From: Catajapyx aquilonaris
Lineage: Eukaryota
Reading direction: 5' to 3'
Length of the DNA: 40,701 nucleotides
Assembly: GCA_000934665.2 (NCBI GenBank)
Contig: KZ538911.1
Location: 1-40,701, forward strand
In this document: in pieces, positions 1 through 37,500 of the stretch
Layout: each line of letters starts with the position of its first letter
Position numbering within the stretch: position 1 is the first letter of the stretch
Made by a program: the position numbers and the translations under genes
The notes under the pieces: model-generated
Told to the model about the DNA's origin: nothing
The model's input: the letters and a program-made list of their open reading frames with translations, nothing else
The model's database searches: none

Positions 1-1
1 C

Positions 2-4870: not shown

Positions 4871-4979
4871 GGGTGGAATTTTCATCCCACTGCCAGTTAC
4901 TGCTAACTTAGCAGTACCAGTGATGGGGATTGTTACTGTTAAGTTAGCAGTAACTAGCAGTCGGATGAAAATTCCACCC
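4871..4979. mobile_element. Palindromic MITE-like element (about 47-bp arms)
   Basis: gggtggaattttcatcc..agttactgctaactta / taagttagcagtaact..ggatgaaaattccaccc; no clear TSD. Confidence 0.7.
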
Positions 4980-5898
4980 ATATATAGGCATTAGGTTCAA
5001 TAAATTTACAATGTACCTAACAATTGCGTGTTTTCTTCCACTCTGGATAATTACAGTCAAATTTCAGATCCTATGTATATATTTAGTTCAGATTAATTTT
5101 ACGGCTGCCTGACCAATCCATCGGTTAACTCACAACCTACATTCTTAAAACCAGCCCTTACAAAATCCGTGTAACCAGTTGGGAAGGGGGGGGGCTAAGC
5201 CTATCGATTCGACCAAATCCGTATCAAATCAGGTGACCTGCAAGAATGACGCATAGGAAACCCGATTGGATACGTGTACAACATACCTTTCCTAACGCCG
5301 CACAGGCCGAACACACACACGCACAATTATCCACGCAAAAATCCTCAAAAATTTCACACTACACGGGGGCGGATGCAGCAAGATGAGACGGAAGTCAATC
5401 GGGCTAAGTTCCAGCAGCCTTGTGCAGGCTCCAGCAACAGCGTCCTCCGCGTCCTCTTTCCAACGGCACAGAGAGACACCACGTCCTCATCATCACCATC
5501 CTGATCTCCTCCGGTTCCACCACATTGTCCAGTGTGGCGTCTCTCCAGCTCAGGCGCCCCTTCCAGACTACTGCTATCCATGGGCTACCCACTCCCCCAA
5601 CACGCAAGGTTGCCAATCTTCCCGGACTCTCCCCACACCCCCCTACCTTCTCTCTATACTCCCCAAAGCTACGTAACCCACCCCACCCACTGCATTGCCA
5701 CGTGCCGCCCAAACACCAACTCGGACACCTACGCCTGCTCTGAATGCTGATTTCTTCTTTTTCTCAGGCTAACTTTTGAAGATGTTTAGGATGATGAGGT
5801 GACATTGAATAGGAACCATCAGGCAGGACGCGATTGAAAGGCTATCTGGTCAGGGTGTGCATACAATACATTGTGTTAAAACTGCTCACACCTCAGTG

Positions 5899-6018
5899 CC
5901 CCCGACGGTATCTCCACCTTGTGGTGGTGGGTCTTGCGTTTATCCCGTGACCCCAAGAGCTATGCAGGCGGTAGCTTCGTCTACTGGTAGGGACATCCAA
6001 GTCAGACAGGTCTTTGGG
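5899..6018 (+). repeat. RTE-LINE 5' UTR-like dispersed repeat, copy 1
   Basis: Shares ggtatctccaccttg..tggtggg and cttcgtctactgg.aggg..caag..aggtc with 19277-19394. Resembles from memory the CCTTGTCGTGG...AGGG..CCCAAG leader of RTE-clade elements. Confidence 0.5.
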
Positions 6019-9000: not shown

Positions 9001-12000
9001 CAAAGGTAACGTTGAACGGGCACCTAGCGACCCAAGCCACTAAAATACAAGGTTACATTTGGAAAAAGGAAGAGAATCGCATGAGCGGGCTTACAGTAAA
9101 AATGGGCCTTCTGGGAATCCTGTCTCGGTCAAGCTCGGATTTTATTCCACCTAGTGGCAAGTTAAGCCTCTTTTCTCACATTGAGAGAGCGCACTTGCGG
9201 TGGGGGACTTGTTGGGTATATCCCCTTTCAAGAATCGGAGGATCCCATCCCTCCAGGGGGAAAAGAGATGGTTGGAAGAGGTGGTGACCACTCGCGACCA
9301 CCAAATGAAGCCTAGCAATATCGCGTAATGGAAAATTCGAGCCACGAGGACTCTAAGAGTGCGGAGCAAGTGGAAGGGTTAGCAAGCAAGGAGGGGTATA
9401 TAGAAGGGTAATTGAAAATTCCGTAGGGAATATGATGGATGGATGGAAGGGGATCTCTACCTGCTGAATTTCTAAGCGGGGTTGATTTATCCCCGATTTT
9501 GCCTATCGATTGCGTCGATACAGTTTACCTTTCCGCGTACCCCTCATGTTCAACCTCATCACATGCCATCTATGCCTCAGCTTATGAAACGTGTCAATGC
9601 CAGGATTACCCCCAGCAATCGACCAGTATAACGGTGGACGATCTATAGAGCACACCCTTGTTTTCCTCTGCTGATTGGTTTTGGCTCGATTCTGCTGCGA
9701 ACGCCTCATTAGAGTCCAATAGATTTATGGACCTCCGTTAGCTAAGTGGTAACGGCTCGAGGTCCTGGAAAGGAGGAGACAAAACCGGCAGTTGTTACTG
9801 CTTGTTTATCTTGAGGAAAGAATTAGCTCATTTAGTTTCCCTTCTGGCAATTACGAAGCTCTGTCTTCTACGCCCTCGGTTTCATGTGTTTCCGAACTGC
9901 GAACCCAGAGAGATCTCGGGGAACAATAACACGTGGAGGACCCTGCACCACCCCCACGGTTTAGCTAAACAATGTCGCTAACTTTCATTCACCTCCTGCA
10001 CACTTCAAATCCCTGCACACTCAATGTAAAATGGCCATTCTATATACGTACGACACAGGCACCTGGAACTCGGCGAATTTAACACGGCACAAAAGGAGTG
10101 ACAGAAAGTTACTGGGGAGTATTTTGACATTTGGAACTAAACTCTCGGATTAGCTTGTATGTAACGCTAGTCTAGATGGCCAGGATTAAACTTGGTACAA
10201 TGGACCATAACTCATTCTGAAGCATCGCCAGGATTCCATACACTCTCCATTTTATGCAGACTACTTTGCAGTTAACCTTCTGATGAGAGTTATCATCCTG
10301 GTTAGTACGCAACCGCACGCTTGTAGCACCGGGAGTATAACCTGCAGGCGCACAGAACGACTCCAAGGGCATTATCAGTATTGGACATTGATGATATAGT
10401 TGGTTCATGTCAATACACAACTTATACGATTGTTGGACTGACTCCTGCTCGTCTGGTATACGTTCTCTCTGTTAGAAAAATAAAAGCAAGCTACAGTACC
10501 TGTCCATCAGATTTCGAGCACAAACAAGTCCGCAAATTTTCAGGGACCTGGACGTAACTCAAAGGGACGGATCAGGAGGTAAGGTGGGTGGGAACATATA
10601 GAAGGCAGGGTGCACCGGGCTGAAAGCCACTTAGACTGCATCTACTCCATGAAATTGCTGCTCCGAAATCTCCTTTCTAGCGCAGAAGGTCACCTCTCAC
10701 ATTATATAAAAAAAGCGGACCCTATATACCTCATTAGGGTCAAGTGGATATCTCAACAACCTGCAGGCCATATAAGAAATGACTGAATTATTTAAAAAAA
10801 ATTAAATTCAAGCAGCACCGAACTCCTGACTTTTTCCATCCCACAACAAAACGACCATTTTGAACCAATTAACCTCCTGCAACCCATTATCAGTTGCGGG
10901 GGGGAGAGAATATTTTGCAGGGGTGAGTTGAAAAAGCAGCCACGCCCATCTCACGAGTCCCCACCACCCCTTTCGAATAGCCAGTTTTAATGGAATTCTC
11001 CTTGGGAACTTCCGGGGGGAGAAAATATACATGATTCTCATCCCGAAATTAATCCCACTAAATTCTGGTCGTGTGGGCTGAATTTGAACCAATGGGAACG
11101 GGCCCGTGCTGCCGGCGGAGTCAATAAATTCCTCTGCGGAGAGTATGGGCAGGACACTGTACCCTGGAGTTTACAACTGGCTTTAGACGATTATGGAGCC
11201 AGATATAGATGGCCTTAAATGCCTTTCCTGCTTTACGTGCGGGCTTATCAACAGGGCAGTGCGTCTGCTTGGGGTTCACGCCCGTCTGCCCAATTCAGGA
11301 TGTACCGATACCTCATCGCCAGTTGGTTGAAACCAATCGTTGTTAGCTCATAAATATAAATACGTAAGCAAAAATCGTTATCAGTTCCGTATTAATAGCT
11401 CCCATACGCATAGCTAAGATGAATTATGCTAGTCTACAAATTCAGCAGTCTAAAAAAGAAAGTTCACATGTCACTAGGAGTAATCGAAATGACATGCAGA
11501 AAACCTATTAGTTCAGCATTTTCCGCAATACCCATTTTACGTAATTTGAATCGCAAATTCTTGAATTGGAGATAACAACATTAGTAACATTACTCGGGCC
11601 AAGGTGCAGCACTTTTTATATCTTTTAAAAAACCAAGCTCGTCCAAAAATAAGCAAGCCGCCTGGCGTAATGAAAATTTTAATTATACGATATATTTATA
11701 GTAACAAACACAACACTGAGGTAATATAAGCCGTCACCTTTTGCATTTTCCTTTAATGTTTACAGAACGACTGTAATATTAACCCGTGCGCTTTTTCAGT
11801 TTATATACACACCCCCAACTGCTCTGCGTCTGTAGAGGAGGAGTAAAACTAATGCGACTGTAATTTACAAGCATTCCCGGGGACATGACGTAGGCCAAGC
11901 GCAAAAAAAAAGGGGGGGGGGGTTTAGAAATAAAATATTCTGACGTCTACCCTAGGTAAATGTGATTAGCACTTTCCATTATGCTGTTGTGCTTGCGTAA

Positions 12001-13755
12001 TTGCATTAGGAGGCAATTTCCATGACTCTCATACTTAAAGGACAGGGCCAAGAAAATCAACTCGTGCCCTTCATCCTTCCGTGTATGCACCCCAAGAGAT
12101 TCTTTTGCTGCACGGGTCGGTCCAGCATCCAGGGGCAAATAACATCCCCCCTGGTTGTTGGACCAGCCCGTCGTGAAATAGAGGCGCAAAAGTTGCATAA
12201 CAGGTTAGGATAAGCCGGAAAGGTTCATCGATATAGAGCTGCCCGGAGCTTCTAAAATAAACCGTGTATTGGACCGATCCCGTGGGCACTACGTGCTAAA
12301 GGGGGCATTAACGTCAACACAAGCAGTCAATAATCACTATAAAAGAACTCAATGCTCTTGTTTTCGTGCCAATATCGCTCTTAATATATTCCCGTTTACA
12401 AGGCAAAAAAAAACTCTGCATAAATCATGTAAAAACAATAACGCACAGGCCCATTCTCGCATGAAATATTGCGGCGAAAGTCTACAGCAATGACATTTTC
12501 TCTCTCCCTTTTTTTTGGCATGAAGTTTTGAGCCCCCCCNNNNNNCCCCCCCCCCCCCGCAAAAAAAAAAAACAACCTCCAATCTCGGCTCGTCCCGGTA
12601 TGCATCAAGTAGCAAGCGCCCTTAGAAAATAAGACCCTTTTGCAAAAGGCCACCAATCCAATTTGCAATTGCGGTCCAAAACGCAAAGCCTCCGCCCTTC
12701 AGAAAATCTGCATCAAACGTGACTACGCTGCATATTTCATATAATAAAACCCCCAGCCCTTCCAGTCACAACTTCGCTCTGGACCATTTATCCAAACTTT
12801 CTGGGAAGTCCTGCAGGGTAAAGTGTGGGGGGAATGGAAAGGAATATATAGACAGAGAAAAGGGGGAGAAGAAAAACGAATATTCGTCTCTTCCCCTGTG
12901 CCCTGCAATTTCAGTTGCAGCCTACAGTTGCGCTTATCGATATCTATCGGTCACCTATTTTACACATTTTCGAAGAGGGACCCACGGGCCTTTCGCTTCC
13001 TGCTTTTAGACGTCCTTTTTTTTTCTCTCCCATCCACACTGCTAAAAAGATAATAAAATGATCTTCAGTTTGGGAAGATGGCAAAATGCATTTTGGACCT
13101 GTCGCCTTGGCCTTGACGCCAGGACCGACCAATAATCGATCGGGATGGCACAGCCTCACCCCCCACCGAAATCTCCTGGCCCCAACCCTCCCTTCCTGTT
13201 CAACCAACCAGGGGGTGGGCCGACGAGCCCGTGACGTCATAAATCGCAATTCTGAACCCCNCCCCCCCCCCCCCCCGAAACACACCAATTTTGAGCATTC
13301 TCTCAACTGCGTCGGGTTGGGACAACGCTCCGAGCAATTTCATTTGGGGAGCAGCCTTGCAACCTTTGGCATGGGAAATATCAGATATGAACAATTTTCC
13401 TGGCCCTTCATGCGCGCTTATCGGCCAGCCAAAATCTAGTTGCGCGGAAGGTAATGGTGGCAAAGGTAAAAAAATATCATCATATACAGAATTAACTAGG
13501 CGTGACATTTGTCTCTGCACTGTGTACGCGTCGACTTATCATCTAGGTGCATGTATTCACGGTTCAGTAATGGCAGGTTCTCTCTCTATAGCTGTCAGAG
13601 GTTGGGAAGCACATTATCGGAGCTCTGGTGGGCTTTTTCCGCGCGGTGACTCATCACCAACGTGCAAGTAGTACTATTTACCCCCCCCCTGAGAGCGGCA
13701 GTAGTGTGCAGATGAGCCTATGCGCCATCTGGTAATGGCATATCGTCCAAATGCA

Positions 13756-14053
13756 ACCGAAGCAATGGTGGCCGAGGGGATATGGTATCCGACTGCTAAT
13801 CGGGAGGTCCTGGTTTCGAATCCCGGTGCCGGCAACTCTAACCGTGGTTTTCTGTGGTTTCCCACGGTTTCTCCAGGAGAATTCCGGAGTTGTTTCCTAA
13901 ACTAATAGGCCACAGCCGCCTCCTTCCTTTCCTATCCTATCCCAAAAAGCGCAGTAAAAACGAAACGAAGAGTTCCAGTCAAAAAAATACATATATCCCC
14001 CCTAAAGAGCCGCCGGCTGATAACGGGGTATGAATTATTATATTATTATTATT
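13756..14053 (+). mobile_element. tRNA-derived SINE with (TAT)n tail and 16-bp TSD
   Basis: A box TGGCCGAGGGG, B box GGTTTCGAATCC, arm ccga-ctgctaa-tcgg. TSD atatcgtccaaatgca at 13740-55 and 14054-69. Confidence 0.9.
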
Positions 14054-22236: not shown

Positions 22237-22270
22237 TTACAGCAAAGAGCAGCTCTTCTTAGGGGACAAA
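22237..22270 (-). CDS. Paralog terminal coding exon (Y)LSPKKSCSLL*; exon continues to a donor after 22224
   Basis: ttaattccccag| acceptor and TTG|gtaagt donor; next acceptor tttatttgcag| at 22139; AATAAA at 21539-21534. Confidence 0.62.
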
Positions 22271-23945
22271 CTGGGGAATTAAATAAAATATGTTTTCATT
22301 GTTATTAATGTATTAGCCTTGAATCACTGTCAGTCTAGGAAGCTTAATAATGTGCATGAAGTACTGTACTCCTTTCTTAGGAAATATTCTAAGTGATTCA
22401 AAGCAATAAAACAATTTCAATGGTATAGTAGCAATCATGCTTACTACTGCTGCACTTTTTCCATGATCCCTTCATACATTTCGTTGATCCTCTCCATGTT
22501 GGTTTCCTTCCCTACAATTACTACCTTGGGTCCCCTCCGAGGTTTAGTAGCGTCATATACTTCAACATCAAGACCAACGTTAGACAGTTTCAGTTGCTTC
22601 TTGAGGTGGGTAACCGAGTGCATCCAGGGTAACTCAAAAGTTAACATCACTGGCTGCATGCCAATGAGCAGCGACCTGGCCGTAATCACATCATCAACCT
22701 GGCCAGTGATGTTCACCAGGCTCTTCTTCACTGGAGGCAGGGAATCATTCGTGGGATCATTACTGTCTATGACAGTGTGGGTGTCCTCCATCAGCTTCTG
22801 AAGGTTGCATCTACCTGGCCCCATGATGAAGGAGTGGTATTTGAGGCGGATGTCCAAAATGTTGCGAGCAACCTTTTTTGGGGGGGAAAAAAGTTCATTG
22901 TCAGTAAATAATTTTGCCACTTCAGTTACTTTAATTCTTACTGTCTGAATCCCCAGCTCCTCCATGATGTGCTTAACGGCCATCGCCACATTTTGTGCCA
23001 TCATCTGAACTCCCTGAACCATGATCAGAATCTGAGTTGGAGGTCTTGTGGAAAATTTAACCTGCCAAGAAAAAGTGCAACAATTTTAGTTGAGTTGATA
23101 ATTTTCCTTAGCTATGGCAAAATGTACTTTAACAGATATATTATCTTCTTGTCTGACAACCTTTAACAGCAACACGTCTTACTAATTAGTACTGTATGTA
23201 TGCAATAATTACCTCAACTTCGTATATTCTTTCCATGACGACTGCAAATGCCTGGAAAATATGTTCATTGGGCCAGGCCGCGAAGAAAACTGGAGCATCC
23301 ACAAGAAACCGGATGACCAGGGGGCTGATCATCTAATGATAGAAATAACACTAATTAGTTCTTCCCCAAAATATTAATTATTATTTATGCTTGGAAAAAA
23401 AATGTGTGTGTGAGAGAGAGAAACAGTTACATTTTCAATCTGAGGTTGAAAGATTCCTTTGATCCCATTGAGATATTTAACATACCCGGATAACCTTGCG
23501 TGACACGTTCAGGGCATGCAGGTCACATCCTGCGATGACAACTCGGTTGTTCTTCTCCCAGACATCCATCTTGTTGGTATCTGCGAAGTGGATGGAACAT
23601 CCTGTCCACTGGCATATTGTCCGGACTCGCCATCCATTTTGGCCAATAAGTCCTGGGTGCTCATTGTAGGGTACTTCCATCTTCAGCCTTAGATGGCTCT
23701 GAATATTACGCACACTCTGTTGCTACAGAATTGTTCATAAAGTATGACACATTGTTTTTCTGCTACACTTCAGCAAGTCTAGGAAAATGTTCACCAACTC
23801 ATTCAAACATTTTAAATAAATTTTAAGCTTGCCATTACATCAAACGCACCTAATCAGATACCAAGTGACATAATTTTGGATGTCACCTTAATTAATGTAT
23901 AATTAGGTGTCATAAGATACTCACACGGCTTCTCTGGCCATCCAT
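22237..23945 (-). CDS. Divergent SAM-less Bicaudal-C paralog (KH2-KHL1-KH3-KHL2 only), about 319 aa, predicted C-terminus PKKSCSLL*
   Basis: Exons (minus): 23945-23925, 23722-23486, 23332-23213, 23061-22942, 22872-22445, 22270-22237 = 960 nt, open and phase-compatible. LKMEVPYNEHPGLIGQNG..GCSIHFADTN..EKNNRVVIAG, ISPLVIRF, KKSLVNITG..ARSLLIGMQPVMLTFELP align colinearly with the neighbouring BicC. The first and last exons are less certain than the core. Confidence 0.85.
22445..23061 (-). CDS. BicC-like paralog exons 23061-22942 and 22872-22445 (separated by an in-frame 69-nt intron)
   Basis: ORF track 22444..23022; counterparts of BicC exons 7 and 8+9. Confidence 0.9.
23213..23332 (-). CDS. 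BicC-like paralog exon (MISPLVIRF...RIYEVE)
   Basis: cattag| and GAG|gtaatt, 120 nt; counterpart of BicC exon 6. Confidence 0.88.
23486..23722 (-). CDS. BicC-like paralog KH2 exon
   Basis: ctgtag| and CGG|gtatgt, 237 nt; counterpart of BicC exon 5. Confidence 0.9.
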
Positions 23946-25148
23946 GATACATGCATAAAGTGGGCTAGAACGGAAAACAATTACATCATTTATGTATTAA
24001 TAATTTTTTAATGTGCACTGTAGCTTAGCATGCAAGTCACTATAGTTGAAAACCTAATACGGCAAATTATTTTTTAAATAATTACTTCGCATGCAATGAT
24101 GAAGAATCAGGATTTTTTTTTTAAAAAAAAAGTTCGGTGCACTTGTGGTCATGTGTTCTATGTGTGAAAGGTAGCAAATGTATCAAAAAAAATCTTTAAT
24201 AAAAAGGAACCTATTGAAATGAGTTAAATGGAATCTCTCTCTCGAAAAAAAACTGCAGTTTCTACCAGTACCTTTCGTCGCCTCGAAAATGAAAAATGAA
24301 AAAAAAAAGCAGAGACGTTTCTACAACCTGCATAATTATGCAGTATGCCTCTCGTTTATCGTCAATTTTCGCGGTTCTTTTCGTTATCGTTAATTACGGA
24401 CAAGCAGTGGTGTACTGCCCTGATGTAAACGAATTACTTGTCAGATCACAACATGCCAAAATTTTTATCCTACATTTTTTTCCGAGAGGTTTTACCTACT
24501 TTCCAACAGTACACCTGATTTTTACAATATTACCATTCATTACCCGAAATAATGACGACAAGTAAAACTAACCAGGCTTTTCAGATTTGGTATGTCCTCT
24601 TCGAGACGTCAAGCACACTACCTTTCTCATGGACGATGGACTACTGAACTTTTGAATTGAGAAGCCAGTAACACATATCTGAAGTTTTACTCGAGTTCCC
24701 ACGCTTTTCCCGACCTTCCCATTGGTCCTTCGGAAAATCGCGTCGAAAAACAACGCCAGATGATTTCGGCGCAGCTTCGGAGGTCGCTTACCTTTTGGTC
24801 CACATGTGGTAAAGGTAAATATATATAAAGGACGCGGGAATTTGACCGACAAAGAAGCCGATCTTCTGTTGATTCCCACCTTTTGATTATAACCTCTGCA
24901 GGTGAGAAACTTGGTGAGCAGGTGAGGAAAAAAATAAGTTATGACGCATTTACTTTTGGCAAATAATCTCGGGATAGGTATCGTAATTTAATGGTGATTA
25001 TCTTTTAATTCAACAGGTGTACAGTACATCACTGGTGAAGTTGAGCTCAGCATGACCTGCGACATTGGAGGGGTCAAAAAAAAAAGAAGCCAAAGACGAT
25101 GTACGTACTCGGACAAATCCAAAAATCACTTAAAACCAATTGGCACAT

Positions 25149-26594
25149 TTTATTTTTGTGGACAGTCCTACTAACACATCTTTCAAGAAGTAACCACTGG
25201 ATGCTGGAAATAACAAGCAGGATGATGTAAATTTAAAAAAAAATATTTTAAAAGGAACAGAACCAGTCTTTATTAAAAGTTACATGTATCGTTGTAATGC
25301 CGCACACTACAACTAAGGTCAGTGAATTGGAAGACTCGTGACTTACGTGAACAGCATTGTCATATTATAATAATTTACAATGTTGGATAAATGGAGAGTA
25401 CTGCATGGTAGCAGTATTTGTGAGCTACTTACGAATGAGTGATAGGCAGTCAAGTTGTTTTAAGTCACATTTTCAGCGTACAATATTTTTTTTTGATTTT
25501 ATGCAGTAGCCTGGACATCCCGACAAAACATGCTGCAGTGATCCTTGCTATAATTGTGAACTCCTGTGTACCGCATAACAATTATAACAATGATCACTTC
25601 AGCTTATTTTGCCAGGAATTCAACGTCCAAGCACAAAAGCAACTCCGTGTATTATTGATGTCTAGACAAATGCCAATAACCCCAGACTATACATGCACTC
25701 TTTTTAAAAACACTTCACATACAAATAAGTGATCATTATTATAATTGTTAAGTAATTTTGCACCTCTCAGCTCCAGGCTGATACATTTTTGCTTTTAAAT
25801 AGATCTTGTTATGTAACGATAAATTGACCAAAGATTTGTTTTTTTCTTTTCAGCCTTGCCAGATTCCAGTGTAATTGTTGGGTGTTTAATTGCGGCAGAT
25901 TGGCCCATAACGCAATCGTTCGCTTCACAATTGCGTTTTACAAGGCAACAGATTTGAACGCCTGCAATTAAGGGTCAACAATATACTTACTGAAGTTAGC
26001 AGTGCATAGTGCATAGTGCCAACATGAGGGAAAAGTTACAAGGCCAAAAACTTACTATAAATGATATCTTGTCAGATGCAAAAAATGTGTATTATTATTA
26101 AGGCATTACCCAAAAAAAAACATTTAAATTTCATGTCTGATTTGTTTGAGATTCATGATAAATACGCATGCCTTTTTTTTCCAATCGAAAAAAGGTACTT
26201 TTCGCACAAGTACAACCCCACCTAATAAGGTTTTTTTTCTCTCTCTTCAAAACTAGTGTGGCCATTACTTTGCATGCCTGTAGCACAAACACTCAATGTG
26301 CACTTAAAGCTATTTTGGACGAAAGTGTCTACTAGTACTAATAAATATCATTCTCTCTGAATATATCACATACAAATGAGCCTGTCCCGACAGGAGGAAA
26401 AATAATAATAATAATAAATGTGTCACTGGAAAAACATAAGGCACGCAAAGCAATATAAATTGCTAAGGCACACAAACTTTATAATTTATGTGCCTTTGCC
26501 ATAAAAATTGCTAATCAATAGCCTCCTTAGCTTCAGGTCTTGGTCCTTAAGTCGCTTTGGTTTCGGGTCAGTTGCGGTCAAGTCTTCGGCATCC
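25149..26594 (-). promoter_or_regulatory. Putative BicC 3' UTR (about 1.4 kb) with poly(A) signals and miRNA seed sites
   Basis: The first minus-strand AATAAA hexamers I found after the stop are at 25274-25269 and 25154-25149. GTGCCTTA occurs twice and GTCTTCCA once in the interval. Confidence 0.6.
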
Positions 26595-26644
26595 TCAACA
26601 GAAGTGGTGACCATTGTGGAACGCCTTGGAGTCTCCTTTAATTT
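26595..26644 (-). CDS. BicC: BicC last coding exon (EIKGDSKAFHNGHHFC*)
   Basis: catttcag| acceptor; phase 1 gives SAM helix 5 continuation 'AISEIK'; TGA at 26597-26595. Confidence 0.75.
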
Positions 26645-27051
26645 CTGAAATGAAAGGCATTAAATGCATTCAGTGTTGCTATTTTTTAGTGCTATTATTT
26701 TATGTAATTACTAATCACTTATAGAAACAGTTTCGGACAAATTGTGTGCTACACAAGACAATTTCAGTAGCAAGAGGGCGACACAGTGGCCGAGTGGTTA
26801 GCGCCACAGCCTTCCACCTCTAAGGTCCCGAGTTCAATCCCCGGGTCGGACGGAGGATACTTATGTGGATAGAGTTTCGATGGGTTCTCTCCGTGTTCGC
26901 GTGGGTTTTCTCGGGGTTCTCCTGTTTCCTCCCACTATCAAAATCCATCACATTACAGGCAAATTATTAAGTCGGTTATTCAAAAGATGATCCCCTAAGA
27001 GGCCCAGGGACCTATCACGGAGTATCCATTATTATATTATTATTATTATTA

Positions 27052-27084
<33 letters not shown>

Positions 27085-30000
27085 TCAGTAGCAAAAGGTC
27101 CAGAATATGCCAGCAACCTATACATGCATCCCTCCGAACAAAAGACTTCCAGATGCCAAAGTTTGGAGCTTGTACTGACCCGAAATGGCGCTCAGCATTC
27201 TCTTACGATGGCCAAACGGACGCACTCCCAATTGTTCCTCCAATTCCTTGTCCTTGAGTTGCAGAAAGATTTCTAAGTCCACCTCTTGCTTCATAAAGTT
27301 GTCTGAAATGCAATGCTTTTTTTTTTAACAACGCTGATCTGAATTCTGGTCAGTACACGACAAACAAGTTATACTGACCAATGTACTTCTCAAGATTGAT
27401 GATAGTCAGCACAGAGGCAATGTCCTTAGCATTCTTCAGAGCGTTTTCGTCATGTCGAGGAAGGGGAAGAGACTCGAAGTGGCTGCTGGAGCCAAGAGGT
27501 AGTGCCCCCTTGTTATTCCCTCCTTTCTTGTTGTTGTTGTTAGTGTCATTGGGAAGTCCATAATTTCCGTCAATGTCAATGTGGTCAAGAGCAGGTCGCT
27601 CCAGCCAGGGCATGCCATTGGTTTTCATGTCCTGAAAAAAAAAAATTTAGTTCATGAGTCGAGCTGCTTCAAAATTGCACAAGCTAAACTTATCCACTAG
27701 TTATAACTCAAGAATAATAGCAGAGTGCCGAAACAGTTGACAAGACTACTTACCACATCATTAGGCACTAAAGCACTCTCCTGTTGTTTCTGCTGTTGCT
27801 TTTTCTTCTCCTCAATCAGGACGGATTCAGGCATGGATCGGCTGAATCCATAGCCAACCCAGTCTGATGTGGGAATGCGAGGCTCGCTAGCCACAGGCTT
27901 CTGCTGCATTGCTGTCAAAACACAGCAAGAGGATTATTATTTTAACATTGCATTCTGAGCGACCCTTAGGAGTGAGACAAGTATTCTAAATGACTTTACC
28001 TTGCACTGCTTGCAGCTTCTTCGTGTCATAGTCAAACAGGCTACTATGATTTGCCCTTAATCGCAGCTGATTCATCTCATAACCCGGGGCACGTCTCTCC
28101 GGAAGGATGAGGGTCAGATCTGGATAAAGTGATTCAGGTTATGAAATGATCTTCAATCTCATCTCCTTTCCTACATACAAGTAGCATTAAAAACTTACCT
28201 GAACCAAGGCTATCATTGCTGCGGTTGATAAGTGTTGACGTTGAATTGTTTGGGGAGCTGCAAGCTGACATCCCTGAGGGAAACTGGCTGTCATCACTTG
28301 TTGGAGACAAATTGCGAGGACTGGTGTATGGACTTGATGTTGAACTGTCTGTGCTGCAGGTAGCGCTTGCTGTGAATGAAATTGTAGAACACTGTTTTAA
28401 GCCATGGATTAACAAGGCGATGGAAAGTTACTGCCAGTTGAGATTCATTCAAACTTGCCTGGACGTAAGAACAAGTCATCCACATCACTTGGGCGTCGTC
28501 GGTGATGGTGGTGTCCTCCTCCCATCATGTATCCTGTGTATGGCTTCATTCCAAGCTGATTTCCACCAATAACGGAGAAGGAAGCAGGTGAAAAGAAGGG
28601 CTGGGACGACGGGGTAGGAGACAAGGGACGGAAGTACGGAGGATTGGCTGATGGCGGGCCAGAAGTGGTGGCGGCAGGTGGGAAGACCGAGGAAGGTGAA
28701 TTGCGGACAGGTGGCCAGGGAGAGCTGCACATCCCTGGGCGAATGAGGCTCTGCATTGGAAGGTCTGCAGAGAAAGAAATACAATGAGCTTGTGACTTCC
28801 ACATCATTTTGTCAAGTAAATTTTTTTTTTCTTTTACATCACCACCAATGATGCTAAATTTTCAAAAGTTGAACCCACCCCATCCAACTGTGGCGAGACG
28901 ACAATTTCAAACTTACTGATCCCATAGAGTGGTGTGATAGCAGGGACGTTGTATGCCTCAGGAATCTTGACCTGCACTGGTGGCCCCTCTGCGATTCCCA
29001 GGATCTGCCGACGTGCTTCGTAAACATTGGCAATATTCCTCTCCGTGCCCTTGATGACCACCGAAACGGCCAGCTGCTTTTTCTTTGGGTGCACATTGAT
29101 CGTCACGCCCAATGTCTCGATCAGTTGGGTTTGCTTAAGCATGTCTGGCTGCGATTCCTCATGAATGTCAAACATCAACACCACTGGTAGAGAGCCCTTA
29201 AATAAAAAATATAAGTCACACTTTATACCACAAGTCACCAGAGAGAGAGAGCATTCAACATGAAACTCTTGAAAAATTCAGAATAAAATACTACTACTAT
29301 TTTGTGTTAAATCTGGGAATAAAATTTCATCTTTAAATGCCCACTTTTTCATAAACACGACTAAACACTTTTTAACTTACAATAAGCTGCTGTCGAGCAG
29401 CATGCACATTTTGCACCCCTCCAGTGATGGTGACGTTGCTCTTCTGCAGTGGAGATATATTAGGGTCAGTAGCATCATGCACCATGATTTGGGTGCTGGT
29501 CCCTTGCATAATGGCCTGTAGATTGTAATAATTGCGTCCCAAAACAGCCGAGTGATGCTGTGGTGAAATCTCCATCGAGTTCTTCACCATGACCGTGTTC
29601 TGCAGAGTAAAGGCAAGTGATTCATGTGCTCCTCTGGAAATTTTGCAACAACTTACAGTGACACCAGCGCAGTAATAGTCCATCAGGTGCAGCACGGCCT
29701 TCTCAATATCTTCACCCTGCTCTTCGCAGCCCTTAACTGACACGCACATTCCTCTCATCTTACCCCATTTTGGGAAAGACACCTAAAAAAGATGATAGTA
29801 CATGTATAGTGCGTAAGTGCAACTCCCACTCAGCCATCTGGCACATTACACATGTGCAGTGTTCATATTGTGAATTTAATTAATTACGAGAAATTCTTTT
29901 ATTAGGTTGCGTACATGTGAAAGTTGAACTTTTCACCTTAGTCCATTGGATATCATTGGTAATTTTTTAAATAAATATCTCAATAGTTACTTAGAATGTG

Positions 30001-33000
30001 GCTGAAACTTGTAATAAATAAATCTGAAGCCCACCTGTACTTTGTACTGGTCCTGTACTTGCTGGACAACAGGATTGTTAGGATCAGGCAAAGGCTGAAG
30101 CACATTCATGTAAGGCAGCTCGAAGTAGATGATCAGTGGGCTCAACTCCTGTGAAAGCAACAGTAAGATTATAAAACTGGTCCACCAATTAAATTTCAAG
30201 ATGTTATGACAGTGTCTGAGAATTTTATTTGCTTCCAGAGAATTTAATCCAACAGTGACACGACGAACTGAATTAAAAATTAAAATCTTGAGCGATGCAC
30301 TGATAATACTTTCATAGGCTAATATGTGCCCAGTTCTTAGATGTCCGATATCTTTTTGAGACTTAAATTGGTTCATACCCTGACACGAGCCCTGGCACTT
30401 TCCACTGCATCGATTTCCCCCGAGATGGAGACTTGGTTGCTCTTCTCCACCATGCTGGTGCGGTTGGAGTCTGGGAAATGGATGTGGCACTTGGTAGCGT
30501 CCATCACCTGCTGGATGATCCTCCCACCACGTCCGATAATGTGGGAGTGCTCGTTGTAGCTCACATCCATCTTCAGCGTCACTCTTGGTGTCTGAAATTA
30601 CACAAAAAAGAAATTAGACACAATTGCCTTAAAAACAGAGCATTACTTCCATGACACTTACACGTGTGTCTAGCACAGCTAGAATCTTCTCCTTAGCCGA
30701 ACGCACATCTTCTATCTTGCCAACAACTCGAATATGTGGATCTGAAAAATATTAAAACATTTTCTGTACTATTGTAAATTGTGAGGATTTACACTCTTAC
30801 TATCTGCATTACATTTTAATTCACAATTTTCTCAGATTGTACAGTGCACATTTGCAACAGAGTTTGTTATTTTTAGCAGAGTATATTCATTAACAATGCA
30901 TTAATGATTGCTTTATGCATTATGCCAATGCATAGATGGAGTAAATATGGAAACGCGAGCAGAAGTTTTACGAATTAAGCCATGCATGTCCCTTTCTCCC
31001 TGAGGTGTTCCAGCCTTCCCTTGTAAATGACATAATATTGCAAAGTGTCCAGAATGCAAATATTTACATTGCATGAACCATACACTTCCAAGGCTACTGT
31101 CAGAAGAATGTGACCCACCCTGCATGTCCGATAAAACATCAATATGAGGAACACAAAAGCCAACCTGGACACCCAAAAGGGATTACCTAATTGTATTTCA
31201 AGAATTTTGCCTTCTTACCCACGAAAAATGAACATTTCCGCCAACTTCGCCCATTCAATTTGGGCATTTTTTTTTCAGGCGCAGTCCCACAAAAAAAAAG
31301 CAGCCCATGTCGCAACCCAAAGGGGCAAAAAAAAAAAAATACATGCTTCACGACCCTTTACTCAACACGCGACATACCGTGTTGTTGTCCCAAAAAAATG
31401 CAAAAAAAAAGGGGGGGGGGGCATTAAAAAGATTTCGCCGAATCCGAATATTCAATTGCGGCTCACATACACTTTGCAAATTAAATGTTCTTGGCACATG
31501 CAGCTAAACAAACGATCCAGCCTGGAGCACCATACACTTTTAATTATCTTTCCATCATTGTCCAACTTTCCAGAAGGGCACAGTCCGGGGAGGGCATATA
31601 TTAGTAATGCATCTTCCTCACATGTTGCAGGGCCAAAGGCATAAAAAATGGATGGTCATCCAGAAATCGACTAGCCAAGTAGCTGCATACACACCTGCAA
31701 AGGCGTTTCTGCCTATCGATCTCTAAAGCCTCCTGGCCCCCCCTAAAATCCCCCCCTTGTTGTCTGACCAACGTTTTCTCATAATAGGTTTATCACATTT
31801 GCACTAATCAGCAAGCATAAAAATTGGGGATGAAAAAAAAAAAGAGCGCAAACGCTGCCTCCCCAAAAAATTAAACCTGAGCTTGTCAGCTATCAATTGT
31901 TAAAAGTAATTGTAATAATGTCACATAAGAAATGAATTGTTGAATTGAATGTCACCTTGTAGCCAACATGTACTGTACCCTAGTTCTATTCCTGAACTAG
32001 CGTGTCGTGATTAATTGAAAATCTGGAAATTTCCAGGGAGCACATTCTCAAGTTTTAAAAATTCGGTTGGTCTAATTACAAGGCGGATCAATCATAAATC
32101 AGCCAGTTGTCACCCCAGCCCCCTTTCATTTTAATCTGGTGGAAAATTGGCAGGCTTGCGTTATGATACAATAACATGCATTTACTTGTCGAGGTCACTA
32201 GGTCGAAAGGCGCATCGAAGTTTAGGAGTATTGACGACACAAAAGGCAACGATTACCGGGTATAATCGACTGAGCACATTTGGATGTTAACTATTGATTA
32301 AAAGGTTGCCATAACATACCCGGATAGTGATGAATCTAGCAGAATAAGTGCAATTGCTCTGAAGACATGCGCTGCTGTTAAACTTATGTTTGCAAACATG
32401 ACAATTGTAATTAAAAATTTTCACTCACCTTTCTTGGACTTTGCTCCAACTTTGAGGCGCGAAGGCCAGGCAATAGTGGTCGACGTCTCTTCCATAATCT
32501 GAATGGAAGAAAAACATGTCACACGCCGTCCTCACAGGTCACACTGCGCCTTGGTTGTTTAAAAATTCCACATACATGATACATGCGTGAATATGACGTC
32601 TGCATCTCACTGGTGCAGAGAGAAGTAAATTCTCCTTCTCTCACCAACAGTCTCACCTTCCCCAACCCCAACATCCACAGTGGGCCAATCACAAGCCTTT
32701 TTGCCCTCCCACATTTCCAATCCCCAGTCTCAGTGAAACCCCCCTTTTAAAAATTTGGGAGAACCCCCCGCGAGAGATAGGACCTAAGGACTTCACATGC
32801 ACATGTGACTAATTACATGCTGCATCTTTTAAATCCCTCAAAAAGTGTTGCATCTGCAATTGCGTCACTGCAGTAGTTCCTATACCCAATTAAGTTTCCA
32901 CTGGTATTGAATGGTCGCAAGTTTAATTGCAAATCGAATCAAATGTAACTCACCCTTTGGAAGAACACCTCCGCATTTTCCACCTCATCGCTTCCACCTG

Positions 33001-34514
33001 CAAGTAAACATCGACAGTGTCACACTTGCACCAACAAAAATATGACAGCCTGTTTGAACTGTCCTGAACATTAAATTTTACAACCAACAAATGATTCACG
33101 GAAGCACCCAAGTCAAGGTTTATTCCAGGAAGCAAGAGAGCAATTATTATTCTTGGGGGAGGTAATATTTCTCAATAGTTATCCACCTTCAGATTGTAAC
33201 GTGAACTATAGTCAATTTCTTCAGGTTGCTATCAGTAATATTGTCTACATAAAAACCTTTTTAGCTAAGTCTGGCCATACGTTTAACTCCCCCCCTTGTC
33301 GGTATATATCGACGTCCTACTACCTTTTTTTTTTCTTTCTAGGAATGCAGGAGGCGAAAAATGGATTGCATGATTCTACATACACACACGCCACTTGATA
33401 TGACCAGGACTCAATAGTTTGTTCAATACTACAATATCACCTTGGAGCACACTCTTGCACACTACAGGCTGCTGGAATTACAAAAAATATATATATATAT
33501 TCTTAAAGAAATTAATGACCTCACTGGACTCGCCAGATAACAGACACACGCACCACAAAGACGTGTTTAAAAAATGGCCAGGCCGTGGTTAAATGGGCAC
33601 CGCGACCAATTACCCATGGACATAAATCCGACGGGTCCTGAAAAAGGAAACGCTGTTTACTAAAATCGGGCCACCAGACACCCGACACCGTTCAAGATAA
33701 GCTAGTGTGGCATTATAAACAAAAAAAAAAAACCCTCTCAGACTTCGCAATTAAAAGCACGGGGTCCAGCCTTCCGTCTAAATGGCGACACTGCAGGGTC
33801 AATCCTCGAATAATTACATATTTACAACTGGATGCATCAAAAAAGGTTCGACCCCATTTTTTTTTCCTTCCAAGAATAAATTATGTAAGTCAGGCCAACT
33901 CACATATCAATAACTTCCCCCCCAAACAATTATCTGATCAAAGAGTACTTTGCTCTGTCCTTATAATATGCATGAATTTTGGTGATTGTCCCTTGCAATC
34001 GTAATGACTGGACGTATTAGGTCACTGTACTGACAAGTCAAATAGCTCTCCCAATGACTTAAAAGAGATACACTATTTTATACCCTGTAAGGTCTAAATC
34101 CGTATCATGGATCCAATCTTTTTTGGCATTTCGATTGAAGGCATCCAGTTGGCAATGGCATTCAGGCCACGGAATTCACGCAAAGCAATTTTTGAAACGA
34201 TCGATTGCATGCGTGTGTATAAAAGCTGCGGATATACTTCCAGAAAAATCGAGCCTAGTTGTATACTCCACAGCGCACATTTAATTTCGGCAGTGGTCAA
34301 ATGGCGAGTTTGAAACTGCCCCAATTTTACCTTGCAGCATTGCCTCCAGTCCACGCCGGTTGACCCGAAACCTGTCCTCGCAGGTGCCCTCGCCCAGGTC
34401 ACAAATCTCCTCCCGGCTGCCCAAAGTGGACATGGTGTCCGAATATTCAGACACACTGTCCTGAACCCCACCGCTGGCCTCGGACAGCACCAGTTGTCCA
34501 AACATGAGATACAT
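26595..34514 (-). CDS. BicC: Bicaudal-C homolog (KH + SAM RNA-binding translational regulator), complete 16-exon CDS, about 836 aa
   Basis: Exons (minus): 34514-34331, 32997-32954, 32498-32429, 30741-30662, 30591-30379, 30148-30035, 29782-29657, 29599-29381, 29196-28917, 28764-28459, 28369-28199, 28119-28000, 27911-27754, 27631-27379, 27302-27180, 26644-26595. Total 2511 nt with all phases compatible. Family motifs: EDRFRVNRRGLEAMLQ, FFQRIMEETSTTIAWPSRLKVGAKSKKDPHIRVVG, RVTLKMDVSYNEHSHIIGRGG, CHIHFPDSNR, PRIPTSDWVGYGFSRSMP, SAM FMKQEVDLEIFLQL...FGHRKRMLSAISEI. Confidence 0.96.
26774..27081 (+). mobile_element. V-SINE-like tRNA-derived SINE in the last BicC intron (antisense)
   Basis: A box TGGCCGAGTGG, B box AGTTCAATCC, core gttctctccgtgttcgcgtgggttttctcggggttctcctgtttcctcccac, (ATT)n tail. 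TSD atttcagtagcaa at 26761-73 and 27082-94. Confidence 0.88.
27180..27302 (-). CDS. BicC: BicC exon 15, SAM domain core
   Basis: atttcag| and |gtcagt, 123 nt; DNFMKQEVDLEIFLQLKDKELEEQLGVRPFGHRKRMLSAIS. Confidence 0.94.
27379..27631 (-). CDS. BicC: BicC exon 14 (linker plus SAM helix 1, DIASVLTIINLEKYI)
   Basis: tttttcag| and |gtcagt, 253 nt. Confidence 0.92.
27754..27911 (-). CDS. BicC: BicC exon 13 (AMQQKPVASEPRIPTSDWVGYGFSRSMP)
   Basis: ttttgacag| and |gtaagt, 158 nt; conserved pre-SAM BicC motif. Confidence 0.94.
28000..28119 (-). CDS. BicC: BicC exon 12 (ERRAPGYE...FDYDTKKLQAVQ)
   Basis: tttatccag| and |gtaaag, 120 nt; RRAPG and DY..KKL motifs of the family. Confidence 0.9.
28199..28369 (-). 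CDS. BicC: BicC exon 11, Ser/Thr-rich linker
   Basis: ttcacag| and |gtaagt, 171 nt. Confidence 0.85.
28459..28764 (-). CDS. BicC: BicC exon 10, Ser/Pro-rich linker with GGGHHHHRRR; ends at a GC donor
   Basis: tctctgcag| and CAG|gcaagt, 306 nt, phase 1 to 1. Confidence 0.82.
28917..29196 (-). CDS. BicC: BicC exon 9 (GSLPVVLMFD...IKGTERNIANVYEARRQILG)
   Basis: tttaag| and |gtaagt, 280 nt. Confidence 0.94.
29381..29599 (-). CDS. BicC: BicC exon 8, KH3 (EISPQHHSAVLGRN...ARQQLI)
   Basis: ctctgcag| and |gtaagt, 219 nt. Confidence 0.94.
29657..29782 (-). CDS. BicC: BicC exon 7 (VSFPKW...YYCAGVT)
   Basis: ttttttag| and |gtaagt, 126 nt. Confidence 0.92.
30035..30148 (-). CDS. BicC: BicC exon 6 (ELSPLIIYFELP...QYKVQ)
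   Basis: ttcacag| and |gtgggc, 114 nt. Confidence 0.93.
30379..30591 (-). CDS. BicC: BicC exon 5, KH2 (IIGRGG loop)
   Basis: tttcag| and |gtatga, 213 nt; matches ORF track 30373..30582. Confidence 0.96.
30662..30741 (-). CDS. BicC: BicC exon 4 (DPHIRVVGKIEDVRSAKEKILAVLDTR), KH1
   Basis: tttttcag| and |gtaagt, 80 nt. Confidence 0.95.
32429..32498 (-). CDS. BicC: BicC exon 3 (IMEETSTTIAWPSRLKVGAKSKK), KH1
   Basis: ttcag| and |gtgagt, 70 nt; highly conserved BicC peptide. Confidence 0.95.
32954..32997 (-). CDS. BicC: BicC exon 2 (GGSDEVENAEVFFQR)
   Basis: ttgcag| acceptor and |gtgagt donor, 44 nt, phase 1 to 0, FFQ motif preceding IMEET. Confidence 0.88.
34331..34514 (-). CDS. BicC: BicC coding exon 1 (MYLMFG...EDRFRVNRRGLEAMLQ)
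   Basis: aaaaccATG start context, conserved BicC N-terminal motif, donor AAG|gtaaaa, phase 1. Confidence 0.88.
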
Positions 34515-37500
34515 GGTTTTTTTTTCGCTTTGTTTCTCACCGAAAAGTTAAAGGCCAGAACCAGCTGGCCACTTATGTTGCGAATAATATAAAATATCCA
34601 CCAGGGAGTGTCCCACCAAACAGTCCAACCAGCCTGCGTCCGTCTCTATGTCTGATGGCTGGAGACGTCGTTACCTTAGATTCCCCCCTCTCTATACCTA
34701 CTCCCCCAACCAGCAAACTCGTTACGTCACAAGGGTTTCGCGTGCGAGGAACCAACCCCCCATCCAATCCACCCACCCACCCACCTATACAAAACTGTCT
34801 AATGCCAATATCTACAGTATAAGTCAAGCTGATTTCCCTGGGAATGTCGTTGTCCAAAAATGAATCATTACGCCCATTTCACCAATGTTGCCAATTAATA
34901 TCCAATTGCACGAGTTGGTCCATCACGACTGACGATGATTAATATGAATGGCCATAATGTTGGTAAAAATATGCGTTACATTGTCAACATCGAGATGTTT
35001 ACTAAACAATGATGGATGTTACAGGTTGGTACGACTCATCACACTCAAGCACTTTTTGAAAATCCCATTAGGTTGTAAGAACTAATGAGCGTTTTGTTGG
35101 TCGTGTTATTAAATCATTACAGGGAGGCGTATCCCGATTGAGCATCTGTTAAGCAATGGCTTAAGTTCACACGTAATTGCTGTCAGAAGAGGTCACCAGT
35201 TAAAAGGAGGAGGGCCCAATTGCTGACACTTTATCAACAAGAAGGACAGCACAGAGCACTCAGCGCGGACCTATGAAAGCTCAGTAAACTCGTCGAAATA
35301 TGATCAATTGATGGCATTTTGATTAATAATGGCATTAATAATAACGATTCATTTCTTACAGTGACAATGATCGATAATTATCATCATCATTTTGTGTTGT
35401 TTTATTGCCCTTCTTATCAGGTACACTTTCAAAAACGAAACAATTTCTTCATCATATACATAAGTTGCTTTGAAGGATATTTACTGTGCAAAGCCTATTT
35501 TGAATGTAGTTATATTTTTTCTCGACTTGGGTTGCACTTTTCGAAAGAAAAAAAGAGACAAATTATAAATATTTTATTTATTGATTGATTGACTTATTAT
35601 GAAGCCCCTTTCGAGGGCATAACCCTTTTTGGCGGAGACAAATTAAAAATATGCATGGACATTTTCCTATTGCCGCAGTCTTCCCTGCATTTGTAAAAAA
35701 AATATATATATATATAAATATTTTGCAAACTGTTACATAAAGATCATTGTGTAACCACATTAAAAGGTGCAGGATGATTCAATTTTGTCACGTATTATAC
35801 CTTTGTTTGTCCACAATTTTCGTTTTATGATTCTTAAAAGAAGTTCTGACTGCTATGCAATGGGCTCTACATCTGAACATTATGTACGCGCATAACCAGG
35901 CTAACTGTGCATTGAGTAACTAGCATCGATGAAATTAATCAAGTGCCTGAAAACTCTTCAGAAGTCAAGCACAGAATATGTGCTTCATAAAGCCACATCT
36001 TCCGTAGTTCTACTGGGTTGTAAGTGCATCATAAGCATTTTGCAGTCTCACAGAACCAAAGAGTTTAACTAGCCTTATCTTTGCAAACACTATTTTGTGT
36101 TTGCATAGTAAAACCTGACTGTCATAAATACCAAGACATGTGAATAAATAAGGCTAATTACATATGTTCCTTTGCAGTACTGTTATAAAATGGGAACAGT
36201 ATTTCTCAAGGGGTGTACGAACCGTATATGAATATTAAGAAATGCTATCCGTAACTGGAGGCAGTGGAAAATGTCAGCAAGATATTATCACATTGTCGAT
36301 ATCATCATTCCAACTTTTGGGTCACAACTTGGTCGGCAACATAGTCACTATTAATTTCACAACAATTGCAGCCACTTTAATTAAATTGTTAAATTTCCAT
36401 TATGACATTTTCCACTGTCTACACATTACAAATTTGTCTCCCCTGTAACATACGGTACTTTATTAGCACCACAGGTACCGGTACATGAAAACTCCAGAAT
36501 CAATTATCTTGACTCTCGGGACAAGGGTTTTAAACTTTTGTGATCTCTTCAATGCTACTAAACCTGATCTTGTAGCCATTGTAATAATGTGTACCTAGTA
36601 CTTACCAATGGTAGAGAGCACATGATGTGAAAAATGTGAAACTTCATTATCCGAGTCGAATCCACTTCAAGCAATGCAAACAACCAATGCTGTTGCTTAT
36701 GCATTATGTGGGCGTATGAATTTATTTAATTATTATCCACTTCAGTACCTGAAAATGTACACATCTTGTCAGTTGTCAATTTCACCAGTTTCAATATAAT
36801 TAACTCTTTGGCTATCTATGAGAATGCACTCTAATATATTTCAGCCTTTGATTCACTTCTAAAATATTTTAAATCATGTGTAAATAATTATATGATTTTC
36901 TCTAATTGTAAGTTAAAGTGACATAATAAATCTAAGTTAAAGTGACCATAATTTTTCTACCTAGACTCCCCCAAAAAATTCAAGAAACTAATAGGACACT
37001 TGCTTTTTCACACAAGAGAAGTCTTTAAAAAGATATTCAAGTCTTCCCATGCATTTCGTACCAGCTTCTCCATCAAAATGTTGAAGTTAATCAAGTGCTG
37101 GACCACTCTAACAGGCGACACACACTCTAGAACTAATCAGGGGCCGCCCCGGGGCCACAAAAAGGCGCACGTGAAATTAATGTGAACCGGTCAAATTTCG
37201 GATGCGCCCGACTGACATTAGTGACGTAATAGGAAGAAAAAAAATGGCGCGAACAATTTAGACAACCCCCCCCACTCGGCACTAACTCTTTATCTAAAAG
37301 CAAAGAATTGCGTTTGTTGCCTCTACAAACTTCATATAATTTTTACGAGTTATTAAGCACACATTATTGAATAAAACGTTTGCTTAATAAGCCGAGAAGT
37401 TGTTGCCGCCCAGATGGGAGTCTCTTGTGGAAGATGGGTGCGTTCAAAAGTTGATGGTTGTAATATTAATTTTCATTAATTAATTAATTAATATTAGTGT

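Follow-up and report, generated by a model that had tools for sequence, protein, structure and literature searches.

In Bicaudal-C proteins (BicC/BICC1), mRNA silencing combines RNA-binding KH domains with a polymerizing SAM domain. The locus described here lies in a 40,701-nucleotide stretch of Catajapyx aquilonaris DNA (contig KZ538911.1 of assembly GCA_000934665.2, positions 1 to 40,701; the window) and consists of a full BicC gene followed downstream, on the same strand, by a short gene that encodes KH-type domains only (the paralog). In mouse Bicc1, the KH2 loop is essential for RNA binding and KH1 contributes to it, and the KH repeat co-precipitates Cnot1 as well as Cnot3 with no need for either RNA or the SAM domain (PMC8249388). 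The KH repeat also interacts with itself, KH1 being sufficient for the pull-down, and the SAM domain nucleates polymers (PMC10232731). The functional GXXG loop of a KH domain is defined in these studies by the presence of at least one basic residue at the X positions (PMC8249388, PMC10232731). The C. elegans protein GLD-3, a nematode member of the BicC family, uses an N-terminal segment, residues 13–88, to bind and activate GLD-2, and this segment precedes its four-KH platform (PMC4931106); in older literature this GLD-2-binding segment is called the first KH domain (PMC3352585). The structure of GLD-3 (Nakel et al. 2010, as cited in PMC4931106, PMC3352585 and PMC8249388) defined the four-domain block as a rigid platform.

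As compared with BicC proteins such as Drosophila Bic-C and vertebrate Bicc1, the paralog has KH2, KH-like 1, KH3 and KH-like 2 (KHL2) in the same order and retains family-invariant core residues (27 of 36 columns that are at least 90% conserved), together with three of the intron positions of its neighbor. It differs from them in lacking the N-terminal region, KH1, the Ser-rich linker, the PT..W.G.GFS motif and the SAM domain, in having GQNG rather than GK/RGG as its KH2 loop, and in the loss of one intron. Like GLD-3, it is SAM-less, has non-canonical KH loops and spans exactly the four-domain platform (KH2–KH5 of GLD-3, PDB 3N89), and its KH3-KHL2 half, the only half that was folded, matches chain 3n89_A. 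In contrast to GLD-3, it has no N-terminal segment ahead of the platform, no upstream coding exon being detected by tblastn or by profile hidden Markov models (HMMs), and no long C-terminal region. It also appears to have arisen separately, within pancrustacean BicC, as judged from its placement among BicC sequences in a tree that contains no GLD-3 sequence. The GLD-3-specific KH families PF22801 and PF22467 have no match in any paralog exon at E ≤ 1.

The paralog occupies positions 23680–22444 of the minus strand and comprises four exons with 287 codons, which encode only the four domains named above and are separated by introns of 153, 151 and 69 nt, all three with GT-AG boundaries. The frame is free of frameshifts and internal stops and ends a few codons past KH-like 2 with a TAG stop that is followed directly by TAA. 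The ATG at 23680, with A at −3 and G at +4, encodes the Met conserved in the LKM(D/E)V motif. Upstream of it, the AG acceptor inherited from BicC is still present at 23700–23699, for an exon that would begin at 23698, with no stop between this acceptor and the ATG. The acceptor is preceded by only 9 pyrimidines in 20 nucleotides, as compared with 14–16 of 20 in eight other acceptors examined, and this degraded tract suggests that the inherited acceptor is disused and that exon 1 has become a first exon. The Pfam KH_1 scores of exons 1 and 4 both exceed the 21.5-bit cut-off.

With 150 BicC representatives as tblastn queries, all matches at E ≤ 0.01 fall within 22,350–23,716 or 27,000–34,522 of the minus strand, and, cross-hits between KH domains aside, the profile HMMs for the N-terminal/KH1 and C-terminal regions match the canonical exons only. 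The N-terminal/KH1 family (KH_BICC1_1st, PF24234) has no match in the paralog exons or within 23,722–27,100, and neither tblastn nor the C-terminal HMM found similarity to the SAM domain or the PT..W.G.GFS linker downstream of the paralog on either strand of the window. The initial annotation of this DNA had described a head-to-tail pair of BicC and a KH-only paralog, on one strand and with an intact frame, that lacks KH1, the Ser-rich linker, PT..W.G.GFS and SAM. That description stands, with both genes on the minus strand, except that the gap between them, given as less than 3 kb, measures about 3.44 kb from the BicC stop to the paralog ATG.

Three paralog introns (R|xxSPL, Y.V.|V.F and T|xx) lie at exactly the parental codon boundaries and are all of phase 0; a fourth boundary, the acceptor that precedes KH2, deviates from its parental counterpart by no more than one codon. 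The canonical LI|GS intron (29380–29197) has no counterpart in the paralog, where KH3 and KH-like 2 share an exon. Because intron positions and phases are common to both genes, the paralog is best described as what its sequence indicates that it is, a partial tandem duplicate, formed at the DNA level, of the neighboring BicC exons from KH2 to KH-like 2. A processed pseudogene or retrocopy was considered and rejected, as there are three GT-AG introns at parental positions. The initial annotation had likewise favored DNA-level duplication over retrocopying on the strength of four shared introns; three of these are exact, the one before KH2 is approximate, and the unshared LI|GS intron was not mentioned in it. 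The homologous introns at 29600–29656 (−) in BicC and 22873–22941 (−) in the paralog are very short. Their lengths, 57 and 69 nt, are divisible by three and neither contains a stop, so that an intron left in place would add 19 or 23 residues in frame between the KH-like 1 and KH3 domains; given these lengths, the in-frame openness could be due to chance.

The paralog and its neighbor are 32% identical (90 of 280 positions in one alignment and 88 of 278 codons in the other), with only small in-frame gaps. Within identical residues, 31 of the 41 four-fold sites differ. The NG86 method gives a proportion of synonymous differences (pS) of 0.70, corresponding to a saturated synonymous distance (dS) of about 2, and nonsynonymous values of 0.48 (pN) and 0.76 (dN); the pairwise dN/dS ratio is not meaningful because dS is saturated. 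A sensitive blastn comparison of the two loci returned two marginal matches, both within homologous coding motifs, and no non-coding similarity. On these grounds the duplication is old in neutral terms, because synonymous sites are saturated and no similarity is left in non-coding DNA.

In the shared block, the neighbor is 55% identical to an insect BicC and the paralog 29% identical to the same protein. In Tajima relative-rate tests, 93 changes are unique to the paralog and 20 to the neighbor with the insect outgroup (p = 7e-12), and 67 and 24, respectively, with an amphioxus outgroup (p = 7e-6). The terminal branches in a 38-row maximum-likelihood (ML) tree are 2.69 for the paralog and 0.66 for the neighbor, a ratio of about 4, as compared with a median of 0.33. 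By these measures the paralog's rate of evolution has been three to five times that of the parent gene, in line with its earlier characterization as a fast-evolving duplicate.

Four independent lines of evidence (the open frame, the splice sites, the base composition at third codon positions and the placement of substitutions) indicate that purifying selection has acted on the paralog over most of its existence. In simulations of neutral evolution that started from the parental segment and used the local non-coding base composition, with 3000 runs per value of divergence K, an open 287-codon frame survived in 0.4% of the runs at K = 0.2 and in none of the 3000 at each of K = 0.3, 0.4, 0.58, 0.8 and 1.0; the distance at second codon positions alone implies K of about 0.58. 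The acceptor tracts of the three paralog introns contain 14–15 pyrimidines in 20 nucleotides. The G+C content at third codon positions (GC3) of the paralog coding sequence is 0.59, as compared with 0.30 in its introns and 0.33–0.35 in its flanks, which mirrors the contrast of 0.61 and 0.32 in the parent BicC despite the saturation of synonymous sites. The placement of substitutions was assessed against a consensus of 36 other BicC proteins, at columns where the neighbor has the consensus residue. The paralog retains this residue in 27 of 36 columns that are at least 90% conserved, in 24 of 52 columns at 70–90%, in 12 of 35 at 50–70% and in 5 of 48 below 50% (p = 2e-6 by Fisher's test; p = 0.0017 by a chi-square test on the three most conserved classes). 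A decaying unprocessed pseudogene, the outcome that the initial annotation had named as fatal to its proposal, was judged unlikely: the paralog itself has an open frame, coding-like GC3 and the retained invariant columns, and it has no frameshifts, premature stops, lost splice sites or composition relaxed toward the background.

An AlphaFold2 model of paralog exon 4 (142 residues, from a 46-row family alignment) has a mean predicted local distance difference test (pLDDT) score of 90.2 and a predicted template modeling (pTM) score of 0.74, with the expected KH and KH-like secondary structure. KH-like 2 is modeled with high confidence as a β-α-β-β-α unit packed on KH3, and the pair superposes on KH4-KH5 of GLD-3. 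In a Foldseek search, GLD-3 (3n89_A) was the only solved chain that superposed on both domains (TM-score 0.69, root mean square deviation 4.5 Å over 143 columns); other tandem-KH structures gave TM-scores of about 0.4 and deviations of about 12 Å. Searched by sequence in the PDB, the C-terminal open reading frame (ORF) matched 3n89 only, and marginally (E = 0.1), and exon 1 matched nothing meaningful. The structure prediction envisaged in the initial annotation, for the four-domain block and for heterodimers, thus has an outcome for the exon 4 (KH3-KHL2) half only.

A HMMER search with the 205-residue C-terminal ORF of the paralog against 1.84 billion representative proteins gave 158 matches at E ≤ 0.001, the best with E = 4e-19 and 31% identity and none with E ≤ 1e-30. 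The best 150 of the 158, all at E ≤ 6e-4, are BicC-like or vigilin-like KH proteins. A source name is carried by 14 of the 20 clusters that were looked up, all 14 being BicC-type or unnamed proteins, from insects, crab, barnacle, spider, millipede, amphioxus and nematode. One nematode sequence among the retrieved proteins (P0077) carries a SAM domain.

For the ML tree (LG+C20+F+G4), 38 rows were chosen, which omits 69 of 107 full-coverage rows, including the vigilin outgroup P0069; seven isoform or cluster-member rows had been dropped earlier. In this tree the paralog and its neighbor both fall in an unresolved pancrustacean/hexapod polytomy with hexapod and crustacean BicC, outside a moderately supported clade (82/88) of sequences from deuterostomes, chelicerates, myriapods and others. 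Uniting the paralog and its neighbor in one clade costs 1.59 log-likelihood units and is not rejected by the approximately unbiased (AU) test (p = 0.38). A lineage-specific duplication is compatible with these data, not demonstrated by them. On the question posed in the initial annotation, whether the paralog groups with its neighbor or with GLD-3, this tree of BicC rows bears only on the first grouping, and in it the paralog shares the neighbor's polytomy. Placement of the paralog in a decapod BicC clade, seen in quick trees with a support of 80–83 in the Shimodaira–Hasegawa-like approximate likelihood-ratio test (SH-aLRT), is absent from the careful tree and was not relied on.

The matched proteins include one cluster with a similar architecture, P0141 (with P0165, P0166 and P0167), which has 347 residues and four members from unnamed transcript-like contigs of about 1.4 kb. 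Like the paralog, P0141 extends from KH2 to KH-like 2 only, with a Met at the KH2 boundary (MKLD..) and a KH3 loop that also starts with GPG; KH_1 and KH_BICC1 each match it twice, and KH1 and SAM are absent. It differs in being only 28% identical to the paralog and in carrying a further tail, about 60 residues long. Joining P0141 and the paralog in one clade is disfavored, at a cost of 24.9 log-likelihood units (AU p = 0.024), and P0141 is probably an independent truncation, provided that the 5' end of its ORF is complete. P0141 hints at a repeated origin of BicC derivatives reduced to the KH platform. With P0141 as the query at near lengths, nothing other than P0141 was recovered.

Other searches returned no orthologue of the paralog. 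A word-based search with the 205-residue ORF at near lengths gave 65 candidates, none significant, and one with the canonical KH-like 2 exon at longer lengths gave 260, none significant. Because even the canonical exon found nothing significant, the lineage seems to be absent from the word-searched collection and its blanks are uninformative. A metagenome scan for paralog orthologues gave 48 pattern matches, none of them confirmed, and the ESM Atlas yielded only generic KH clusters, below 0.9. A limited literature search (Bicaudal-C paralogs, tandem duplication, crustacean) turned up no published description of an arthropod BicC paralog.

The KH2 loop of the paralog contains no basic residue. 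Among 73 pattern-matched family rows, 46 have GKGG and 14 have GRGG in this loop, and GQNG is found in the paralog only; the KH3 loop of the paralog is GPGR. The isoelectric point and net charge are uninformative (pI 7.7 for the paralog, 6.8 for the neighbor and a family median of 9.1). The interpretation that we favor, and rate a little above even, is that the paralog is an old, fast-evolving but intact duplicate whose product is a soluble protein-docking platform that modulates BicC complexes. Translation would start at the conserved Met of LKM(D/E)V and give a free-standing, 287-residue platform of four KH domains, corresponding to the globular unit seen in the crystal structure of GLD-3. 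This protein probably binds RNA poorly or not at all, because KH1 is absent and the KH2 and KH3 loops are GQNG and GPGR, and it would not join BicC polymers by SAM–SAM contacts because it has no SAM domain. Most likely, by analogy with mouse Bicc1, it would engage the partners of the BicC KH platform as a soluble docking module and would in this way modulate, and most simply antagonize, BicC-dependent mRNA repression. A competitor or modulator of BicC had also been named in the initial annotation and is plausible; the germline setting suggested there draws no support from the present analysis. The roles of the KH and SAM domains of BicC have hitherto been dissected with engineered deletions, and this locus supplies a natural, apparently maintained KH2-KHL2 platform that has an altered RNA-contact loop and lacks KH1 and SAM. 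If expressed, the paralog would be a probe of the platform alone, for partner docking and for antagonism of BicC granules, and would represent a second route, besides nematode GLD-3, to a SAM-less regulator of this family; without expression, it is simply a partial duplicate that has been preserved unusually well.

Several observations weigh against this interpretation. The short gene, with its presumed 5' end, is a prediction from genomic DNA, and there is no AATAAA or ATTAAA within 740 nt past its stop. KH-like 1 scores 21.6 bits against KH_BICC1 (PF22985), below the cut-off of 27 bits, and KH-like 2 has no Pfam KH_BICC1 match. The exon 4 model indicates compatibility with the platform fold rather than independent proof of it, since it was built from a BicC-family alignment and 3n89 was in the AlphaFold training data. 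In the retention test, the ancestor is only approximated by the columns where neighbor and consensus agree, an approximation that is weakest in the least conserved class. As no orthologue was found in the collections searched, selection is inferred from one sequence and the duplication is undated. The GXXG loop of KH2 still has its two glycines, which leaves room for some RNA binding, and the partner data come from vertebrate Bicc1 rather than from arthropods.

The best surviving alternative, still unlikely in our judgment, is that the paralog is an RNA-binding competitor, in which KH2 and KH3 hold BicC targets that cannot be concentrated and silenced without a SAM domain and are thereby protected from BicC. 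KH2 is the essential RNA-binding domain of Bicc1 (PMC8249388), and in the paralog both of its GXXG glycines and the surrounding KH core are kept, with significant KH_1 matches. The proposal has to accommodate, however, a KH2 loop with no basic residue that is unique among the 73 family rows, the absence of KH1 as a contributor to binding, the replacement of GXXG by GPGR in KH3 and the description of the GLD-3 platform as not RNA-binding in a review (PMC3352585).

A stronger form of the docking-platform interpretation, quite unlikely and offered as speculation, is that the paralog is a natural "anti-BicC", a platform that has shed RNA binding, with the loss of KH1 and a neutralized GXXG loop, and polymerization, with the loss of SAM, and acts as an endogenous dominant-negative, titrating CCR4-NOT or capping the KH1-mediated cross-links of BicC granules. 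If so, its fast evolution would reflect a regulatory or conflict-prone role, and the paralog, P0141 and nematode GLD-3 would be repeatedly evolved SAM-less BicC derivatives, a general means of tuning BicC condensates.

It is very unlikely that the four exons belong to the BicC transcription unit as an alternative 3' block, reached by splicing from the end of BicC exon 4 (..LDTR|) to the acceptor at 23698. Such a transcript would encode a SAM-less isoform with the N terminus, KH1 and an alternative KH2-KHL2 platform, an architecture like that of GLD-3. The exons follow BicC on its own strand at a distance of 3.4 kb, the donor and the acceptor are both in phase 0, the AG is retained with an open frame up to the ATG, the only canonical poly(A) hexamer after BicC is an ATTAAA some 480 nt past its stop, and the putative short gene has no identified promoter. 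However, the weak pyrimidine tract at 23698 (9 of 20 as compared with 14–16 of 20 elsewhere) suggests disuse, the phase match is inherited and expected either way, and the splice must bypass the whole of the rest of BicC, its terminal exon included.

Silencing of a long-functional gene that is now an unexpressed pseudogene but has yet to acquire disabling mutations is a highly improbable alternative to the docking platform. It would fit the lack of a canonical poly(A) signal within 740 nt past the stop, the lack of an orthologue in the collections searched and the derivation of the gene from genomic DNA alone, but the ORF and splice sites are intact and GC3 is 0.59, so that the gene could only have been silenced very recently, with K well under 0.2. 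Least probable of all is the GLD-3-like cofactor proposed in the initial annotation, an activator of a GLD-2-type cytoplasmic poly(A) polymerase, which draws on the shared lack of SAM, the superposition of the modeled KH3-KHL2 pair on 3n89_A as the best solved match and the marginal PDB sequence match (E = 0.1), but is not supported: the protein begins at KH2 with no equivalent of the GLD-2-binding residues 13–88, has no match to GLD-3-specific Pfam families at E ≤ 1 and groups with pancrustacean BicC in the tree.

The upstream neighbor is a full Bicaudal-C gene on the minus strand, from an ATG at 34514 to a stop at 27120–27118. Its exons were identified by a stop-to-stop ORF scan together with direct reading of the sequence, and the first nine were modeled with GT-AG boundaries for all of their introns. 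A 44-nt micro-exon links exon 1, which carries the N-terminal motif, to KH1, and its omission would put the two in different frames. Such an exon is easily overlooked in similarity searches and was missed by tblastn. In the last exon, the tblastn alignment to a homologue reaches to within five residues of the homologue's own C terminus. The KH3 loop of the canonical gene (29381–29599, −) is GRNY rather than GXXG, and other arthropod rows have GRNN or GKQS at this position; KH3 seems to be non-canonical in this lineage even in the parent BicC. The coordinates of all features are collected in Table 1.

Table 1. Features of the BicC gene, the intergenic spacer and the KH-only paralog, in positions of the window
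Feature	Positions	Strand	Evidence and remarks
BicC exon 1	34331..34514	-	ATG 34514; N-terminal RFRV..R..LE motif; N-terminal HMM match, ORF 34284-34547, E 3.7e-6
BicC 44-nt micro-exon, ..AE.FF.. segment	32954..32997	-	Phase-constrained AG..GT exon search; in-frame model
BicC KH1, first half	32429..32498	-	HMM E 6e-10
BicC KH1, second half	30662..30741	-	HMM E 1.2e-10; phase 0 end, ..LDTR|
BicC KH2 exon, GXXG loop GRGG	30379..30591	-	Pfam KH_1 E 5.5e-16
BicC KH-like 1, first part, |ELSPL.. to ..YKVQ|	30035..30148	-	Exon model
BicC KH-like 1, second part	29657..29782	-	Exon model; followed by the 57-nt in-frame intron
BicC KH3 exon	29381..29599	-	Pfam KH_1 E 2.8e-9; ends ..QQLI| at the intron absent from the paralog
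BicC KH-like 2 exon	28917..29196	-	Pfam KH_BICC1 E 1e-18
BicC Ser/Pro-rich linker exons	27353..28861	-	ORFs, tblastn, C-terminal HMM E 7e-17, 4.1e-6, 4.7e-4; approximate splice sites
BicC PT..W.G.GFS motif	~27829-27912	-	Inside the linker stretch
BicC SAM, first half	ORF 27353-27646	-	tblastn, C-terminal profile HMM
BicC last exon, SAM second half	27118..27324	-	Pfam SAM_1 E 3e-11; stop 27120-27118
Intergenic spacer, ~3.4 kb	23699..27117	-	No BicC-like coding similarity; no Pfam domain in ORFs of at least 75 residues; ATTAAA at 26642
Paralog exon 1, KH2, GXXG loop GQNG	23486..23698	-	Pfam KH_1 E 1.1e-9, 38.3 bits; coding 23680-23486
Paralog exon 2, KH-like 1 first part, |MISPL.. to ..YEVE|	23213..23332	-	ORF reading, alignment to neighbor; coding 23332-23213
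Paralog exon 3, KH-like 1 second part	22942..23061	-	Weak KH_BICC1 match; coding 23061-22942; followed by the 69-nt in-frame GT-AG intron 22941-22873
Paralog exon 4, KH3 and KH-like 2 fused	22441..22872	-	Pfam KH_1 E 2.7e-7, 30.7 bits; coding 22872-22444; TAG 22446-22444, TAA 22443-22441

Elsewhere in the window, Pfam searches of 80 further ORFs of at least 75 residues identified no domain, and none was found in any ORF of this size within positions 1–14000. The spacer contains open frames at 26486–26659 (−) and 24571–24987 (−), of 57 and 139 residues, that have no Pfam match and no similarity to BicC and are probably not coding. An A/T-rich trinucleotide repeat at about 27020–27100, just past the BicC stop, produces runs of I, N or Y in several frames. 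The G+C content of positions 1–14000 is 0.42–0.48, above that of the rest of the window, and short runs of N are present at 803, 3942–3960, 12540–12545 and 13261.

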